Source of the DNA: Crocosphaera subtropica ATCC 51142
GTDB lineage: Bacteria; Cyanobacteriota; Cyanobacteriia; Cyanobacteriales; Microcystaceae
Length of the DNA: 32,000 nucleotides
Direction: 5' to 3'
NCBI RefSeq assembly: GCF_000017845.1
Contig: NC_010546.1
Span: 90,001 to 122,000, forward strand
The position numbers and the translations under genes are program-made. The notes under the pieces are model-generated. The model made no database searches. It had not been told where the DNA came from and saw nothing but the letters and a program-made list of their open reading frames with translations. The first letter of the stretch is position 1; each line of letters opens with the position of its first letter. Positions 360 through 11,539 of the stretch are shown piece after piece.

Positions 360-971
360 TCATCGACTTTTTTCGATGATTCCCTTGAGATCCATCTGGG
401 TATTACAATTAAAAAGAACAGAGCGATCGCTGACAAATAGTTCTTGGACATATTCGCATTGTAACCATTGCTGAAAGGATCGCCCTCCTGCTTGGATAAA
501 GCTCTCTAGGGACGTTAAACAAGAAGAACGATAAAACCCACACAACGGGTCCCACCCTTTTTCATGAAGGGGTAAACAAGCAGTGACTTGATCAGAAACT
601 TGATGTAACTGTTGTAACCATTCCTCGATGGCTTGAGTTGTTAAGTTAGGTAAATCACAGGCTAACAATAACACCCATTCTGTCTTAACATGGGATAAAG
701 CTTGAGCGAATCCCACTAGCGGACCTTGACTATCTCCCGATGGACATACTTCTTGCAATAGATAACAGCTTGAAGGAACGATCCTTTGATAACGCTCTAT
801 CCAAGGGGTAATAATATAAATAGGGTTAGCATATGCTTGGATTAAGGTAGCACTCCGTTGTAACAAGGGAACGCCTTTAATCTCAATCAGTGCTTTATCT
901 TTGCCCATACGGGAGCTTTTACCCCCTGCAAGGATAATGGCACTAAGAGCGGATTGGAAAGGTTTTTCCAT
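360..971 (-). CDS. mobA: Molybdenum cofactor guanylyltransferase (MobA)
   Basis: 203 aa. The N-terminal ILAGGKSSRMGKDKALIEIKGVPLL is the MobA nucleotide-binding signature, and the length is typical. Confidence 0.85.
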   Translation of the reverse strand: MEKPFQSALSAIILAGGKSSRMGKDKALIEIKGVPLLQRSATLIQAYANPIYIITPWIERYQRIVPSSCYLLQEVCPSGDSQGPLVGFAQALSHVKTEWVLLLACDLPNLTTQAIEEWLQQLHQVSDQVTACLPLHEKGWDPLCGFYRSSCLTSLESFIQAGGRSFQQWLQCEYVQELFVSDRSVLFNCNTQMDLKGIIEKSR

Positions 972-4204: not shown

Positions 4205-4536
4205 GGTGTGCCAAGCACCCCATAATTTAAGTCGGATGAATTTATTACAAAAGCATCTTTCTTTAGACTTAAATTACAGTGGAAACCATCATATTGAGCA
4301 AGATTTCTGGATGCGTTTAAATCCGAGTTTTGATATGGAGAAGAACTACAAACCCATCACATCATAAAAGTAAAAGATGGGGGTGATGACAACATAGAAA
4401 ATCTAACTCACATTCACAAATGTTGTCATATCCATATACATTCTGGAAAGCAGGGAGCTTGAGCCGTATGATGAGAAATTGTCAAGTACGGTTCTTAGGG
4501 GAGGGTAGGTATGGTGACATACCTCCTTTACCCGAC
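4205..4536 (+). mobile_element. Group II intron 3' fragment A (degenerate HNH coding remnant plus domain V/VI)
   Basis: A frameshifted HNH remnant reads ELQTHHIIKVKDGGDDNIENLTHIHKCCHIHIH. Domain V-like GAGCCGTATGATGAGAAATTGTCAAGTACGGTTC lies at 4461..4494. It is followed by a GTGA-looped hairpin (domain VI-like) ending near 4536. Confidence 0.65.
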
Positions 4537-4737
4537 AATGCTTGCTTATCCTGCATTATTCATGAAGAAAAAACAAAACCTAAAAAATAAGAAATTGGCA
4601 TCAAAAATGATTTTTTATGAAATGGATTTTTTTAAAATCGTGAATCTGGCTAATCCAATCACTAAAAACTAGCTAAAAAGTGGAAAAAATACTAAATTCA
4701 TGTCATACAGACACACCAATCCCATGAGACATAGATG

Positions 4738-6137
4738 TTAGGAAAAAGTTAATTGTTGACCCGAAGATAATCGTTGTACCATTAAGAGAATGTCATCCCG
4801 AAAAGGACAATGAGCAGCTAATTCTACTAGAGTTCTTCTCACAGAAACAGTAACTTTAGAGCTATTTTTATAATGGTTTCCCTCAAACGAGAAACTTGAG
4901 CCATCCCCAATCTCGTCCCTTCGGCAGAAGCCCGAAGTTCAAGCATTAAAATATAAGCTGCTTGGCATAAAAATAAGCGAAATTGATTAACAATAAATTT
5001 ATGGTAACTGAGACGATCTGCATTAATGCCTAGTTTCAATTCTTTAATTCGATGCTCAGAACTTGCCCCTCTTTGAACATAAAAATTATCGTAAAGTTCT
5101 TGCGGTTCTGTTTCCAAATTAGTCACCAAAAATCGAGGATTACTACCTTTTTTAAGCCATTCTGCTTTCATGACAATTCGACGAGGAGCTTTCCAAGTTT
5201 TGGCAGCATAATATACATCATCAAACAGCGGATGCGACCCCGCGCCGTCGCACGGCGCAAGGGAACGCGCACCAAGCAAACGAGCCTTATCTTGAGTCCG
5301 AAAATACTGTAATCTAGCTAGGTCAAGAAGATAATTAATTTTCCTTTTTAACACAGCATTTTTACTAAAGCCAAAAACATATTTTATATCTTTTTGTTCG
5401 CAAAGATTCATGATTTCAGGTAAAGAAAAACCTCCATCTCCTCGCAAAATTATTTTCACAGATGGCCAAGCTTTTCTTAAACGCCAAAACAGCCATCTTA
5501 GTAACCCTAAAACCCCTTTACCTGCGTGAGAATTTCCTGGTCTTAAGTGTAAAAGTAAAGGATAACCACTTTTGGCTTCATTAATTAAGACAGGAAAATA
5601 AATTTGATGTCCATAGTAACCATGAAATAAGCTCAATTGTTGGTGTCCATGAGTATAAGCATCAAATCCATCTATATCTAATACTATTTGTTCTGGATCT
5701 GAGGAATAATTTTGAAGAAATTTATCGACAAAAAACCGACGTATCCTTTTAATTTCTTGTTTAGTTATTCTATTTTCTAGGCGACTAATCGTCGGCTGAC
5801 TTGCTAATAATTCTGCTTCCATTTTGGGAATTTTATCACAAATAATTTTAAAAATTGGGTCATGACGTAAGTAATTACTATCATTCGTATCTTCATATCC
5901 TGCTGCTATTTGATAGATTCTTTGACTTATTAACTGAAATAGTGGATGTTTAACTTTATGTTGTTCTCTTTCATCTTCTAAGCAATCGGCGATTCCTTGA
6001 CACACTTTCCAATTTTCTTCTCCTTGCTTTAGCAATAATAATCCCGCATCTGTACTTAAATCTAGTCCAGAAAACTTGACCTCTAATGGTTTCTTCGTCT
6101 TAAAATTAAAGGGGAGTTTTTTGGAAAATGTTTTCAT
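4738..6137 (-). pseudogene. IS1380-family DDE transposase, frameshifted near the 3' end and carrying a GC-rich hairpin insertion
   Basis: Track ORF 4839..6137 (432 aa) ends ...ETIIKIALKLLFL*. The +1 frame continues KVTVSVRRTLVELAAHCPFRDDILLMVQRLSSGQQLTFS* to 4738, which looks like the normal C-terminus of this family. The N-terminus (LSTDAGLLLL, QRIYQIAAGYEDTNDSNYLRHDP) is typical of this group. Confidence 0.6.
5234..5268. repeat. 35-nt GC-rich hairpin module, copy A (inside the IS1380 transposase)
   Basis: The sequence is GCGACCCCGCGC-CGTCGCACG-GCGCAAGGGAACGC. Both arms are identical to copy B at 10126..10160. It encodes the in-frame segment APCDGAGS within an otherwise AT-rich gene. Confidence 0.6.
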
Positions 6138-6352
6138 GAATAATCAATGGATTTATCTAACTTTTATTCCTCCCTTTATTATAGTTTATTCTGAACTTTT
6201 TGAAAGCATTGTTTTAACTTATTCTTGATAATTCAAAAATAAATAATTAGTAAGAGATTAAAATTACAGACTGTTGTTCGGTTGAAATCTCTATATTCGT
6301 TATGGGATAAGGCTTTTAGGTTTTTTTTTCATGTTTTCATGAATAATACAGG

Positions 6353-6800
6353 CTAGTGTATTGGAGTACAAGAATGGGCAAAAATCCTGAGATGCCAAAG
6401 CGAACAGCATCACTGCTCAAAAAGCAAAAAGGGAAATGCGCCCACTGTGGACTGTTCTTTAAAGATGAAGACACTATAGAGTTAGACCATATCATTCCTA
6501 AGTCGAAAGGTGGAAAGAATGAATATAAAAATTGGCAACTACTCCATAGACACTGCCATGACGAAAAGACCAGAACAGATGGAAGTCTGGAAAGGTCTGG
6601 TAACAAAACTGGTTGTAACAGTACCATACCAAAACAACTATCAGATATCCCATCTAACTACAGATGGATAAACGATATGCTTGTGACGGCGTACTAATGA
6701 CAATAGCCGTTTTACTGAGGAGCCGTATGATGCGAAAGTATCAAGTACGGTTTTGGAGAGCAGTGGAGAAGGTGACTTCTTCACTGACTTTACTGTCCTC
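6353..6800 (+). mobile_element. Group II intron 3' fragment B (HNH domain of the intron-encoded protein plus canonical domain V and domain VI)
   Basis: The HNH ORF is cut at its 5' side by the IS end. Domain V is GAGCCGTATGATGCGAAAGTATCAAGTACGGTTT at 6720..6753, with a GAAA tetraloop. A GTGA-looped hairpin follows (CAGTGGAGAAG/CTTCTTCACTG). The 3' boundary is approximate. Confidence 0.7.
6356..6697 (+). pseudogene. C-terminal fragment of a group II intron reverse transcriptase/maturase (DNA-binding plus HNH endonuclease region only)
   Basis: The translation is VYWSTRMGKNPEMPKRTASLLKKQKGKCAHCGLFFKDEDTIELDHIIPKSKGGKNEYKNWQLLHRHCHDEKT, an HNH motif. No RT domain is present upstream. The frame opens only 9 nt before, at the IS boundary. 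Confidence 0.75.
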
Positions 6801-7285: not shown

Positions 7286-7640
7286 ATCGTGAACTTTGAT
7301 TTGTTATACTAGCTCTTCTTTTACAATAAGTGCTTTTTGTTTGTCTAGGGGTTAATGTGACAAAATCTTAAATCTTTATTAAAAAACTTGGCAAATAGCA
7401 ATTAAATGATAGGTGTTTGTGGCGATATTGCTACATTTCATCAACTTATTCAACTCATGTATTACGTTATATTAATTTTTGTCTCTGACTATTAAGTTAT
7501 CAAATCCCCAACAGGAAGGGGACAAAAACATTTTGAGAAAATCTTAAATTTTTAATAAATTCAGAACAGTTTTGTCTTAATCAAGGAACTCTACACTAAA
7601 ATTTTATCAATCCTTTTATTTCTGATTTAGGATAATTTTT

Positions 7641-9500
7641 ATGTTCTCTACTCCGTCGCAATGGTTTTCTTTTAAACTGGCTTTATGCTGTAGTAGTGGC
7701 TTAATTATGGCTATTTATAGCCTAATTTTGGTCAATTTAATTCATCAAGATAATTCAACAAATAATAGTAAAGTAACATCAACTCACCTTGAACAAGAGA
7801 GAAACTGTCAATTTTCTGCTTCTGAGTCCCATAGTAATTTGCCAAAATTAGGATTAACTATTAATTCTTCTGCTTTAGTAAGTCAAACTGTTTTTTCTGA
7901 TATTGATTTAAACTTACAAGACTGTTTAAATGGGATTATTTCTGTGGGAAAGTCTCATCATAAACAACAATTAATTATCTCCCCAACCACATTTCCTGTA
8001 TTATGGAACGCAGCTAAGAATGCTAATCAAGCTATTTCTAAACCCTTTCCCTATATTCATGAAAGTGCTAGAGCAGCCAAGGTTCCGATTTTCATGTATC
8101 ATGATATTCTACCCAAAAAAGAAGTCTTTTTTGATGTTACACCCGAAGAATTAGAAAACCATTTTAAGTACATTCAAGAAAAGGGGTTGACTCCCATTAG
8201 TCTTGATTTATTACTCGACCATTTACAAAAAGGAATTCCCCTACCAGATAAACCCATTTTACTCAGTTTTGACGATGGTTATGGAGGCCATTATGACCAT
8301 GTTTATCCCTTATTGAAAAAGTATAATTATCCTGCTGTTTTCTCGGTGTATGTGAAGAAAATGGATGGAACAACAGCCCGTTCTAGTTTAACCTGGGAAC
8401 AATTACAACAACTAGCCGATGACCCCTTAATCACCATTGCTTCTCATACCATTAGTCATCCAAGAGATTTAAGAGAATTATCCGATGATGAATTATTTCA
8501 AGAAGTAATGATGTCCAAAGAAATTCTAGAAGAAAAATTAGGGATTCCCATTAAATATTTTACCTATCCCGAAGGAAAACATGATGCTAGGGTCAAACAG
8601 TGGGCGATGGCTGCTGGTTATAAAATGGCGTTATCGATGTCTAATGAAGAAGAAATATTCGCAGGAGAATCTCCCGATTTATTAAGTATTGGTCGTTTTG
8701 GTCAATCACAATTACAAGTGGTTTCTGGTGATGCTTGGGGCGGTTATCCGGGAGAACATTTAGATGGTGGATTTAATTTTACGGCTACGATTACGAAACG
8801 AGAACATCAGATTGATGGGATAGAATTGGTTATTATTAACGGCGGTAAACCCAGTACCATTCATGCTGATAGTCGGTATCAAGTATCAGAAATTATGGCT
8901 AAAAGTGAGGCAGTTGCTGCAGTTGATGGGGGGTTTTTCTCTTTAAAATATCTAGACTCCAACGTAATGATAGGACCGGTGATGAGTCAAGGGGAAGAAT
9001 TTACGCCAGGAAATCAGAGTGAAAATCCCAGATTGAATGGTCGGCCGTTAGTTTTAATTAGCGATCAATGGGTTAAGTTTGTCCCCTTTGATGCAGACAT
9101 TCATAACACTTGGGCAGGGGTTGCTAATGAATCTGATGAGGGTGAATTTATCACAGATACCTTTGTGGCAGCAGCTTGGTTAGTGAAAGATTCTTTGGCA
9201 CAACCCTATGAAAGTTTTGGTAATTTATTTGATTTTCATGTTCCTCGACACCGTGCTTTTTGGGGGATTCATCGGTCAGGACAACCCATGATAGGGGTTT
9301 CTAAAAATCCAGTTGATTCTATACAATTGGGACACATTTTACAGCAATTAGGGTTTAGGGATGCGGTTATGTTAGATTCAGGGGCGAGTACATCTTTAGC
9401 TTACAAAGGGGAATCTTTGGTGGGTTATATTCCCCGTCCCGTTCCCCATGTGGTGGTATTATTACCCTCTGTATCTTCTTTGTTGGAAACTACAGAGTAA
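7641..9500 (+). CDS. Membrane-anchored polysaccharide deacetylase (NodB domain) fused to a phosphodiester glycosidase-like (DUF2233/NAGPA) C-terminal domain
   Basis: There is an N-terminal TM helix. NodB motifs are LLSFDDGYGGHYDHVYPLLKKYNYPAVFSV and ASHTISHP. The C-terminal PRHRAFWGI...VMLDSGASTSL resembles phosphodiester glycosidase family proteins. Confidence 0.75.
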   Translation: MFSTPSQWFSFKLALCCSSGLIMAIYSLILVNLIHQDNSTNNSKVTSTHLEQERNCQFSASESHSNLPKLGLTINSSALVSQTVFSDIDLNLQDCLNGIISVGKSHHKQQLIISPTTFPVLWNAAKNANQAISKPFPYIHESARAAKVPIFMYHDILPKKEVFFDVTPEELENHFKYIQEKGLTPISLDLLLDHLQKGIPLPDKPILLSFDDGYGGHYDHVYPLLKKYNYPAVFSVYVKKMDGTTARSSLTWEQLQQLADDPLITIASHTISHPRDLRELSDDELFQEVMMSKEILEEKLGIPIKYFTYPEGKHDARVKQWAMAAGYKMALSMSNEEEIFAGESPDLLSIGRFGQSQLQVVSGDAWGGYPGEHLDGGFNFTATITKREHQIDGIELVIINGGKPSTIHADSRYQVSEIMAKSEAVAAVDGGFFSLKYLDSNVMIGPVMSQGEEFTPGNQSENPRLNGRPLVLISDQWVKFVPFDADIHNTWAGVANESDEGEFITDTFVAAAWLVKDSLAQPYESFGNLFDFHVPRHRAFWGIHRSGQPMIGVSKNPVDSIQLGHILQQLGFRDAVMLDSGASTSLAYKGESLVGYIPRPVPHVVVLLPSVSSLLETTE

Positions 9501-10078: not shown

Positions 10079-11539
10079 ATGGGCAAGTCTAAAGCTAAAC
10101 CCAAAACTAAAAAGAAAAAAGACGAGCGACCCCGCGCGATTGAATCGCGCAAGGGAACGCTCGAGTACGACTCTATGATTCGCACAGATGTCTGGAATCT
10201 CAATGTGACATCATCCCAAAAAAAGCTATTATTATTGACAGTTGCAGAATATAGAAAATTCTTAAAACCTTTAGTTTTTATTGTTAATGCAGAATGGAGA
10301 ACAATTGGTAATCTCACCGATAAAGAGAAAGTCAATTATCTAGAGAAATCCATTCATGTAACTAACAAAAATCCCAAGGCTAAATATTTATATTATCAAA
10401 AAGTTATCAATAAATATCCATCGTTTCGGAAGTTTCCGAGTTATTTAAGAAGAGCAGCAATAGCTGATGCTATTGGCATTGTTTCAAGTTTTCAGACTCG
10501 TTATAGAGAATGGCAATCAGGGATAAGAAAATATAGAAAAGTTAGACCTCCTCGCTTAACAGCTATGTGTCAATCTTATCCTGCTTTATATAAAGGTCAA
10601 CAAGTTAAATATAATAATGATTATCAAAATGTTGACCTCAAAGTTTGGAATGGTTCGGATTGGGTATGGTTAGAAAAAGTCCCAGTTAAAGGTCATGGAC
10701 TTAACCGACATAAAGTGATAGGAAATCAAATGAAATCACCAGCCTTGGTGGTTAATGCTAAGACTTGTCAGCTTTCAATGCCAGTTAAAGTTAAACCGAT
10801 AAAAAAGGAGGATTCAGACTATGTTTGTTCTGTAGATTTAGGCATTAACAATGCAGCAACTTGTTCAATTGTTGGACGAGACGGTACTGTAAAAGCTCGG
10901 AAATTTATCAATCCAGCTAGAGACATAGACCGTAGAAATAAGCGAAAAATGATGATTGCTAAAAAGTCAAAGCAGACTCACCAAAAGACAGGAAAAAAGT
11001 TTGTTAAAGGCTTTTGTCAAGGTATTTATCGAAAATCAAGCAATATTAATTTAGAGATTTCTCGTAAAGTAGCTAGACAAATTATTGAGTTTGCTAAACT
11101 TCATAATGTTAAAGTAATCGTTATGGAAAACTTAGCAGGATGGAAAGCTAAGGGAGGAAAAAAAGGCACTTTAATGAGACAAAAGTTTCATTTATGGTGT
11201 CATCAAAAAATTGTAGAGATTTTAAATAACCGATGGGCAGAATTAGGGGGAGATGTGCAAACAATTAACCCTAAATATACCAGTGCTTATGCCTTTGATG
11301 GTAGTGGAAAAGTTAAACGAAATAAAAAGAATTATTCTTTATGTACTTTTTCTTCTGGTAAACAATATAATGCTGATCTTTGCGCCTCATATAACATCGG
11401 AGCAAGATATTGGTATTCTGTCTTAATTGGTGATAAGTATTTCTCTAGGGTATTTGTTAGCGAAAGTCCTACAAATACATTGCGAACACCAATAACTCTA
11501 GGGACACTCAGGGGTCTAAAATCTTCTGGGTGCAAGTGA
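10079..11539 (+). CDS. tnpB: TnpB-family RNA-guided nuclease-like protein (IS605 OrfB); the core probably starts at Met33 (10175)
   Basis: RuvC-I is CSVDLGINNAAT, RuvC-II is KVIVMENL and RuvC-III is YNADLCASYNIGAR. The start MIRTDVWNLNVTSSQKKLLL is typical of TnpB. The 32-aa Lys-rich leader contains GC-hairpin copy B. Confidence 0.8.
   Translation: MGKSKAKPKTKKKKDERPRAIESRKGTLEYDSMIRTDVWNLNVTSSQKKLLLLTVAEYRKFLKPLVFIVNAEWRTIGNLTDKEKVNYLEKSIHVTNKNPKAKYLYYQKVINKYPSFRKFPSYLRRAAIADAIGIVSSFQTRYREWQSGIRKYRKVRPPRLTAMCQSYPALYKGQQVKYNNDYQNVDLKVWNGSDWVWLEKVPVKGHGLNRHKVIGNQMKSPALVVNAKTCQLSMPVKVKPIKKEDSDYVCSVDLGINNAATCSIVGRDGTVKARKFINPARDIDRRNKRKMMIAKKSKQTHQKTGKKFVKGFCQGIYRKSSNINLEISRKVARQIIEFAKLHNVKVIVMENLAGWKAKGGKKGTLMRQKFHLWCHQKIVEILNNRWAELGGDVQTINPKYTSAYAFDGSGKVKRNKKNYSLCTFSSGKQYNADLCASYNIGARYWYSVLIGDKYFSRVFVSESPTNTLRTPITLGTLRGLKSSGCK
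10126..10160. repeat. 35-nt GC-rich hairpin module, copy B (in the tnpB leader)
   Basis: The sequence is GCGACCCCGCGC-GATTGAATC-GCGCAAGGGAACGC. The flanks GA...TC extend the outer stem (GAGCG/CGCTC). Confidence 0.6.

Follow-up and report, generated by a model that had tools for sequence, protein, structure and literature searches.

The DNA considered here, referred to throughout as the window, is a 32,000-nt stretch of the Crocosphaera subtropica ATCC 51142 genome (NC_010546.1, positions 90,001 to 122,000), an origin with which identical proteins in the database agree. It carries two copies of a GC-rich, 35-nt hairpin module, one in an IS1380-family transposase gene (copy A, 5234–5268) and the other in a tnpB gene of the IS200/IS605 family (copy B, 10126–10160). 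The module is probably the core of a family of non-autonomous mobile hairpins, 45–51 nt long, found in Cyanobacteria and recognized through their fold. Sequence comparisons show activity in several lineages that appears to be recent, and copies A and B, to judge from alignments with uninterrupted homologs, are independent insertions into the two genes.

Two Inserted Copies in the Window

In a pattern search of the window, GCGACCCCGCGC-N9-GCGCAAGGGAACGC was matched exactly at both positions, each time on the + strand, as a sequence-only reading of this DNA had reported. The arms GCGACCCCGCGC and GCGCAAGGGAACGC are identical in the two copies, and the 9-nt centers differ. There is no third match to the arm pattern in the window at up to three mismatches, and none in 100 dinucleotide-preserving shuffles of it; the chance expectation is zero. 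Both copies fold into GCG/CGC and CCC/GGG helices followed by a 7-bp inner stem and a 3-nt loop. The core of copy A can be written as GCG-AC-CCC-(7-bp stem, 3-nt loop)-AA-GGG-AACGC, while that of copy B has the inner stem GCGCGAT/ATCGCGC and the loop TGA. The inner stem consists of GCGC, two compensated pairs (C-G/G-C versus G-C/A-T), and then a T-A pair common to both copies, so that two of the three variable inner-stem pairs are compensated between them. The compensatory change seen earlier is thus borne out, but the inner stem is 7 bp long and not 6 bp as then given. Covariance-model matches score 69.3 bits for copy A (E = 1.6e-14) and 57.5 bits for copy B (E = 9.8e-12). A weak match at 840–882 (+ strand; 12.8 bits, E = 0.34), which keeps AC-TCC...AA-GGG-AACG inside conserved coding sequence for a MobA-like nucleoside triphosphate (NTP) transferase (PF12804), was considered as a third copy and judged to be due to chance.

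The host of copy A is an open reading frame (ORF) for an IS1380-family DDE transposase of 432 residues (4839–6137, - strand), identical to cce_0105 over 398 of them. Within it the copy is read on the - strand, as ...LAPCDGAGS..., and is therefore antisense to the host gene. DNA alignment with empty and filled IS1380 copies places the full unit at 5228–5278 (+ strand), as GCGGAT, the core and GCACCAAGCA, for a total of 51 nt or 17 codons; it represents the tailed subtype 1b of the family described below. At this site two uninterrupted IS1380 copies (loci L124 and L125) read CGTT-TG-TTTGAT, where the window copy and one other filled copy (L126) hold 51 extra bases. The insertion is exact, with no target duplication beyond a junction ambiguity of the dinucleotide CA (5226–5276 is equally possible). 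Immediately 5′ of it is the A-rich target ATCAAACA (5220–5227, + strand), the empty site being ATCAAACA^AACGAG. In protein alignments, the 17 residues LLGARSLAPCDGAGSHP are missing from 11 of 12 IS1380 homologs (63–92% identical) and are carried by one relative with 90% identity.

Copy B lies in sense orientation within codons 15–30, in the Lys-rich N-terminal region, of an IS200/IS605-family tnpB gene for 486 residues (10079–11539, + strand), and is translated there as ...DERPRAIESRKG... Gene-length comparison and the outer stem in the fold indicate a probable unit of 45 nt at 10122–10166 (+ strand), made up of ACGA, the core and TCGAGT. The ACGA recurs directly after it (10167–10170), and the copy may reach 10169, for 48 nt, if the ancestral gene had one codon fewer. 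This is the tail-less subtype 2, with the outer stem CGAGCG/CGCTCG in the fold. At the DNA level the window tnpB is 15 codons longer than its nearest two uninterrupted counterparts (L123 and L005), and in TnpB relatives a KKKK run is directly joined to (P/Q/L)(D/N)SMIRTDVW, with no inserted segment.

Homologs of both transposases thus lack the segment, in protein as well as DNA alignments, in agreement with the sequence-only reading that it is foreign to both genes. The peptides and open frames quoted there recur in the ORF translations, as do the opposite orientations relative to the two coding strands. Its 35 nt do not make up the whole unit, which is 51 nt for copy A and 45–48 nt for copy B, the outer stem continuing past the 35-mer.

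A Cyanobacterial Family in Two Architectures

Further copies, which the earlier reading had anticipated, were found in scans of genomes and metagenomes. The genome scan required exact arms and covered one genome per species; it returned at least 120 loci beyond the window. In the metagenome scan only GGTGCGACCCC...GGGAACGCGCACC was fixed and the inner stem was left free, and at least 120 contigs were recovered. The exact-arm loci come almost without exception from Cyanobacteria, with about a dozen genera named, and every named organism among the matches listed is cyanobacterial. Strain ESFC-1 accounts for 15 of the loci listed; the other named hosts are Crocosphaera, Cyanothece BG0011, Xenococcus, Hyella, Waterburya, Okeania, Lyngbya, Lusitaniella, Chroococcus, Baaleninema, Elainella, Dactylococcopsis, and strains SU2/SU3. 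They belong to the Chroococcales, Pleurocapsales, Oscillatoriales and allies, with no Nostocaceae genome among the 120 matches listed. Carriage by phages or plasmids was rejected as the vehicle, since a scan of 2.9 million viral contigs gave a single match and plasmids gave one more, from Chondrocystis.

Among 126 exact-arm copies there are 34 different centers, and the sequences outside the core fall into two main types. Type 1 has the form GCGGT-core-GCACCAAGA(C/G)A or GCGGAT-core-GCACCAAGCA, 51 nt either way. Type 2, which lacks a tail, has the form (WW)G(A/G)CGA-core-GCGAG(T). In other copies the outer arms differ but are complementary, among them CTGGT/ACCAG, AAGT/ACTT, GAGCA/GCTGT, GGTCAG/CTGACC, and GCCGAG/CTCGGC. 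Four copies in Waterburya sp. (OZ244627.1; L068, L087, L097, and L117) have flanks that are identical for more than 25 nt (gaacttttagca(a/g)ccaaaaAGCGGT...GCACCAAGACAtcagaaattagata), and were evidently amplified passively within a larger repeated sequence.

A Conserved Fold with Free Stem Sequences

The family has the anatomy of a single imperfect hairpin. An outer stem, free in sequence and ending in a G-C pair, leads to a conserved asymmetric internal loop, with AC opposite AAYG; this is followed by a CCY/RGG helix, a 2-nt bulge, and an inner hairpin whose length is fixed at 17 nt and whose sequence is free. What is constant is G-AC-CCY ... NN-RGG-AAYG-C and the overall length, plus the tail in type 1, so that only about 16 nucleotides are conserved apart from the tail. 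With the inner stem free, in the metagenome scan, 60 distinct centers were found with about 25 unrelated inner-stem sequences, such as GCTGGGG/CCCCAGC, GATGAGT/ACTCATC, GGTGATT/AATCACC, and TCGGAGG/CCTCCGA. Nearly all centers have either 7 bp and a 3-nt loop or 5 bp and a 7-nt loop, and their total is almost always 19 nt including the 2-nt bulge.

Among 99 unique copies with exact arms, covariation is found both at the three free inner pairs and in the outer stem, in the latter through replacements such as GGT/ACC, AAGT/ACTT, CAG/CTG, and CCGAG/CTCGG. In the model-fitted alignment pairing cells make up 86.4%, compared to 72.5% in shuffles. When the stem covariation implied by the two window copies is tabulated, it proves general: changes on both sides are found in 13 of 18 pairs, a number matched in none of 500 shuffles, and the covariation score is 0.283, against 0.062 for shuffled alignments and at most 0.067 with the partners slid. 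Copies at genome loci without exact arms behave alike, and add CCT/AGG in the middle helix. The combination of a constant loop, bulge and length with free stem sequence indicates that what selection maintains is a single-stranded fold, together with its particular internal loop and bulge.

Insertion Sites and Nesting

Type 1, which can be summarized as a GC hairpin followed by AAGASA, integrates precisely, with no target duplication beyond 1–3 ambiguous bases. Two loci (L052 and L056), each compared with L118, show 51-nt gaps in DDE transposase genes; these homologs are 70–72% identical, and the ends in L056 are not exactly determinable. One more comparison of a filled with an empty site gave 52 nt, in a probably decayed gene. 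Across 52 genome and 111 metagenome copies, A makes up 60–100% of the 5′ flank of type 1 at each of positions -1 to -5, and the AAGASA tail hardly varies.

Three tnpB genes (L063:1484–2722, L094:7087–7998, and L111:3793–5055; ESFC-1, a Crocosphaera metagenome-assembled genome (MAG), and an unclassified MAG) carry type-1 copies at the same site, after the ATGGTNAAAAA codon pair of a GM(V/I)KN motif. The copies are 92–96% identical and the adjoining 300 nt only 48–77%. The simplest reading is that these would be independent, recent insertions at one conserved tnpB target, and the GM(V/I)KN motif looks like an insertion hot spot. The excess of tnpB among the hosts described below is due at least in part to this, because the preferred A-run target lies in a conserved TnpB motif. 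In a fourth tnpB gene (L078), a type-2 copy in opposite orientation lies a few codons from the ATGGTNAAAAA site.

Copies are also inserted into each other. Type 1 is found within type 1 at GCGCAA^GGGAAC, just past the AA bulge, up to three deep (L027, L119, and L095), with 51 nt added per level. Type 2 nests to a depth of up to five (L079, L064, and L041), its insertion point in the terminal loop being just after CCGTAAG. The nesting points of both types are unpaired positions of the fold. The type-2 nests (L079 at about 7560–7830, L064, and L041; ESFC-1 and a Spirulinaceae MAG) grow by exactly 44 nt per level, 25 on the left and 19 on the right, and their junction, ...GCGAGTAGCAAGGG, lacks 2–3 nt of the outer copy.

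Arrays of heptamer repeats are another kind of target. Copies are found in arrays of CAATAAC, GGGAATA, GGCAACA, CAACAGT, and AAAATTG, and in those of GGGAATA, GGCAACA, and CAACAGT type 1 is inserted precisely between units. Two copies (L062:579–652 and L038:2119–2210) are themselves interrupted by a short GC-rich segment with CCYTCGAATGGGG; as there are only two occurrences of this in 1.45 Mb, a second nested micro-element was considered and no family could be established.

Genomic Context and Reading Frame

Most exact-arm copies (about 75–80%) are outside long ORFs, and 25 of 121 unique ones are deep inside them, with all three frames used. With a looser gene call, 26 of 52 type-1 copies are within ORFs. 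About 24 in-ORF hosts could be typed: some 10 TnpB, four DDE transposases, and nine ordinary genes. The latter encode a MutL linker, ModBC, three CHAT/STAND proteins, Uma2, a PMT_2 glycosyltransferase, a GGDEF-EAL protein, and one protein of unknown kind. With ordinary genes so frequent among the hosts and most copies outside long ORFs, the suggestion that the module is a specific parasite of mobile elements does not hold. The PMT_2 ORF, from Lusitaniella coriacea (L042:1703–3868), appears to hold at least two element-derived segments (...APRPRAADKAQGNARQ... and ...AVRPRAAERRATPRRRQGARERASS...), and stays open over 722 codons.

Inspection of the sequence shows all six frames of the core with its tails to be free of stop codons, although certain inner-loop variants contain one, for example the TGA in the loop of copy B. 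As the length is a multiple of three and there is usually no stop, in-frame copies can persist inside genes. Type-1 copies in ORFs are mostly in sense orientation, with sense to antisense ratios of 24:2 in genomes and 27:7 in metagenomes. The ratio of A5 to T5 on sense strands is 61:39, which is the expectation from the asymmetry of A-runs alone. For type 2, without the A-run, there are six sense copies to eight antisense. The - strand of type 1 has a GC hairpin followed by a T-run, and both window copies score as terminator-like on that strand. Antisense copies in genes would then be selected against, since the GC hairpin and U-run given by the opposite strand look like an intrinsic terminator. 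Between genes, copies favor neither a position nor a direction with respect to neighboring gene ends. As for the proposal that the module regulates its host elements, no evidence for it was obtained, the sole hint being the terminator-like opposite strand.

Setting of the Host Elements in the Window

The IS1380-family element that holds copy A probably extends from 4547 to 6355, between imperfect 32-nt inverted repeats (4547–4578 and 6324–6355, 78% complementary). Its transposase ORF stops about 34 residues before the end of 449-residue relatives (...IALKLLFL and a stop, versus ...IAAKVTVSVRRTLVELAAHCPF...), and this copy is probably decaying. It is bracketed by two matches to group II intron domain V-VI (Rfam RF00029), at 4459–4536 (+ strand, 58.8 bits) and 6718–6793 (+ strand, 59.4 bits), which have a common 33-nt repeat with 91% identity. 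Because of these flanking matches, and because the left inverted repeat starts only about 10 nt past the first of them, the element may lie immediately downstream of the 3′ end of an intron, or else be enclosed by intron remnants.

The TnpB encoded in the window belongs to a cyanobacterial subfamily with strong similarity to Pfam PF27142 (Aq_aa04), and only weak similarity to OrfB_IS605 and Cas12f1-like_TNB. The relative L123 has a 74-residue remnant of a Y1 transposase divergently upstream of its tnpB; the corresponding 580 nt of the window contain no ORF of 80 or more residues.

Possible Mechanisms of Spread

The element is envisaged to move as a single strand, with an enzyme supplied in trans that would read the fold. 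The class of this enzyme can be proposed only tentatively, as an HUH/Y1 single-strand DNA transposase of the IS200/IS605-TnpA or RAYT (REP-associated tyrosine transposase; REP, repetitive extragenic palindromic) kind. This class was ranked first because the order of target, cleavage, hairpin, target-like tail, and cleavage fits such enzymes. Cleavage would take place behind the A-rich target and again behind the similarly A-rich tail, that is, at AAAAA^GCGGT-core-GCACCAAGAGA^N.

Several observations weigh against this account, or limit how far it can be taken. When ORFs near 116 loci were clustered all-against-all, no recurrent dedicated neighbor was found; the clusters consist of generic families, tnpB, DDE transposases, and just four ordinary IS605 tnpA genes, so that the Y1 transposases near copies are ordinary IS605 TnpAs only. 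Origin from IS605 ends was considered and rejected, the left- and right-end hairpins of the sole IS605 copy checked (L013) being unrelated to the element. At 102 loci there is no correlation between copy orientation and flanking GC skew (p = 0.74), the latter a weak proxy in Cyanobacteria, and the replication-strand bias typical of IS200/IS605 is accordingly not seen. The ends of type 2 are less defined than those of type 1, and insertion 3′ of a target without duplication holds for type 1; moreover, simple insertion cannot produce the type-2 arrays, given their 44-nt step and the loss at the junction. That the arms are almost perfectly conserved is in part due to the search pattern, in which exact arms were required, and counts of G-U versus A-C wobble pairs are too few, or too biased by that pattern, to name the folding strand. 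Some of the in-ORF copies may also share ancestry, in which case their counts are not fully independent.

The foremost alternative, though an unlikely one, is an RNA intermediate. A transcript of the opposite strand would end at the hairpin and U-run, the U-tail would pair with a nicked A-run, and a resident reverse transcriptase, from a group II intron, a retron, or a relative of these, would copy it in, which would make the element a retro-copied terminator and a bacterial analog of short interspersed nuclear elements (SINEs). This would explain why copies lie directly 3′ of an A-run, why the 3′ boundary (the RNA 5′ end) is fixed, why the fold is conserved rather than the sequence, and why the opposite strand is terminator-like; the host genomes are rich in retroelements, the window alone having two group II intron domain V-VI matches. 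RNA intermediates were reportedly also favored for small dispersed repeats by Elhai and co-workers in 2008. However, the nested and heptamer targets offer only one or two A residues (CAA^, ATA^, ACA^), too few for pairing with a U-tail; a clear series of tail-truncated copies was not observed; both the A-run and an orientation bias are missing in type 2; and no reverse-transcriptase gene recurs near copies. That the element is specifically a mobile intrinsic terminator, an RNA of about 50 nt copied into A-runs by target-primed reverse transcription with a resident enzyme, is rather improbable. If it were true, it would be a bacterial counterpart of SINEs, seeding terminators and 17-residue peptide insertions across cyanobacterial genomes.

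It is improbable, too, that these are REPs, or REPINs (REP doublets forming hairpins), serviced by a domesticated RAYT, in which case they would belong to the GTAG-15/16 families of Cyanothece. They are GC-rich imperfect palindromes of REP-like size with a complex loop, the type-2 - strand has TCGTC beside the stem, REP families are found in six Cyanothece strains including ATCC 51142 (PMC3733652), and RAYT/REPIN systems are known in Nostoc (PMC3116915). But they have no unpaired GTAG tag, are single or nested and never inverted doublets, lie within ORFs in 21–50% of cases, and flank no RAYT-like gene in the approximately 0.9 Mb of genome sequence sampled. Still less can be said for a functional cis-acting RNA (terminator, attenuator, stabilizer, or protein-binding hairpin) kept by selection on the host or insertion sequence (IS) and not currently mobile, which is very improbable. 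The conserved internal loop and bulge do suggest a protein-binding surface, the terminator-like opposite strand would fit, and copies at one site are much more alike than the sequences around them; set against these are presence/absence differences between related genes, nesting up to five deep, unrelated contexts with three frames and both orientations, intergenic copies without preferred position or direction, and the lack of any Rfam match at E ≤ 10. Chance likeness, or ordinary conserved coding sequence, has next to no probability: only the open reading frames speak for it, and it is ruled out by the absence of chance matches, the homologs without the segment, and the hundreds of copies elsewhere.

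Comparison with Known Elements

Rfam gave no match to the module at the gathering score when the window was scanned, and none at E ≤ 10 with a 141-nt query. A literature string search with the arms and their reverse complements returned unrelated papers only. On the best reading, the element resembles cyanobacterial small dispersed repeats (SDRs) and REP elements, and is set apart by their descriptions, falling under the full definition of neither.

SDR1-8 of Nostoc punctiforme and relatives (Elhai et al., 2008, Genome Res 18:1484; see also PMC5861425, PMC4390886) are reportedly very small dispersed cyanobacterial repeats, which form a hairpin with compensatory changes, nest in themselves, occur in heptamer repeats and mobile elements, and have no known enzyme. 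The element has the same compensatory hairpin, self-nesting, and residence in heptamer arrays and other mobile elements, so the likeness to such repeats noted by the sequence-only reading is a real one. However, SDRs are given as 21–27 nt, against 51 nt for type 1 and 45–48 nt for type 2, and as confined to Nostocaceae, whereas the hosts listed for the element are outside that family.

REP/REPIN-RAYT systems are likewise GC-rich imperfect palindromes in many copies, with covarying stems and complex loops, and are thought to move as single-stranded DNA by means of a trans-acting tyrosine transposase. REPs, among them the families tagged with GTAG or CGTC (Di Nocera et al., 2013, PMC3733652; also Bertels and Rainey, 2011), are extragenic, have an unpaired tag, usually form inverted doublets, and flank a RAYT gene. 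The element has no such tag or doublets and is often in ORFs, from 25 of 121 copies deep within them to 26 of 52 type-1 copies in called ones. No GTAG flanks type 1, and it is found only at type-2 nested junctions; the TCGTC beside the type-2 stem belongs to the outer helix. No RAYT gene flanked by copies was seen in the approximately 0.9 Mb around them. A search for inverted doublets gave a single locus with opposed copies, the covariance-model matches otherwise being single or nested. This locus, on an ESFC-1 scaffold (L047, 2393–5031), has two copies with identical flanks around a run of Ns and a duplicated cobyric-acid-synthase-like coding sequence. It was considered as a REPtron and rejected, since it looks like an inverted-duplication assembly artifact at a scaffold gap.

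IS200/IS605 elements and palindrome-associated transposable elements (PATEs) also insert without target duplication, 3′ of a short specific sequence, in a hairpin-dependent manner and into single-stranded targets, but they have two different subterminal hairpins and at least 200 bp, in contrast to one hairpin and about 50 nt here. Classical miniature inverted-repeat transposable elements (MITEs; Nezha, Correia/NEMIS, ERIC, RUP) are likewise dispersed, short elements that do not move autonomously and are often structured. They exceed 100 bp, with terminal inverted repeats matching a DDE transposase and target-site duplications; the element has none of these, and its junctions are clean, with at most 1–3 ambiguous bases. 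Rickettsia palindromic elements, as described by Ogata and colleagues in 2000, are reportedly about 100–150 bp and confined to Rickettsia. They too are palindromic and lie in frame within protein genes, with a length that is a multiple of three, adding a peptide and leaving the ORF open. The element does the same, with 51 nt for 17 codons, the host ORF open, and three sense frames among in-ORF copies, but its sequence is unrelated, and nesting and an A-run target are not known features of the Rickettsia elements. An intrinsic-terminator shape is present on the - strand, and intergenic copies have no preferred direction to their neighbors.

Significance

How bacterial repeats too small for coding are spread has, to our knowledge, been an open question since SDRs were described in 2008, and is only partly settled for REPs. 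The present family provides a clean handle on it, being found in many genera with a defined fold, fixed length, recognizable target, and exact junctions. These features supply substrates for biochemical tests and a covariance model for phylogenetic profiling toward the enzyme. For the genomes that carry it, the element adds 15–17 residues in frame to proteins such as MutL, ModBC, STAND/CHAT proteins, and TnpB, which gene callers take as ordinary sequence; it may also plant terminator-like hairpins inside genes, and it can serve to mark recent activity in, and exchange between, cyanobacterial genomes.

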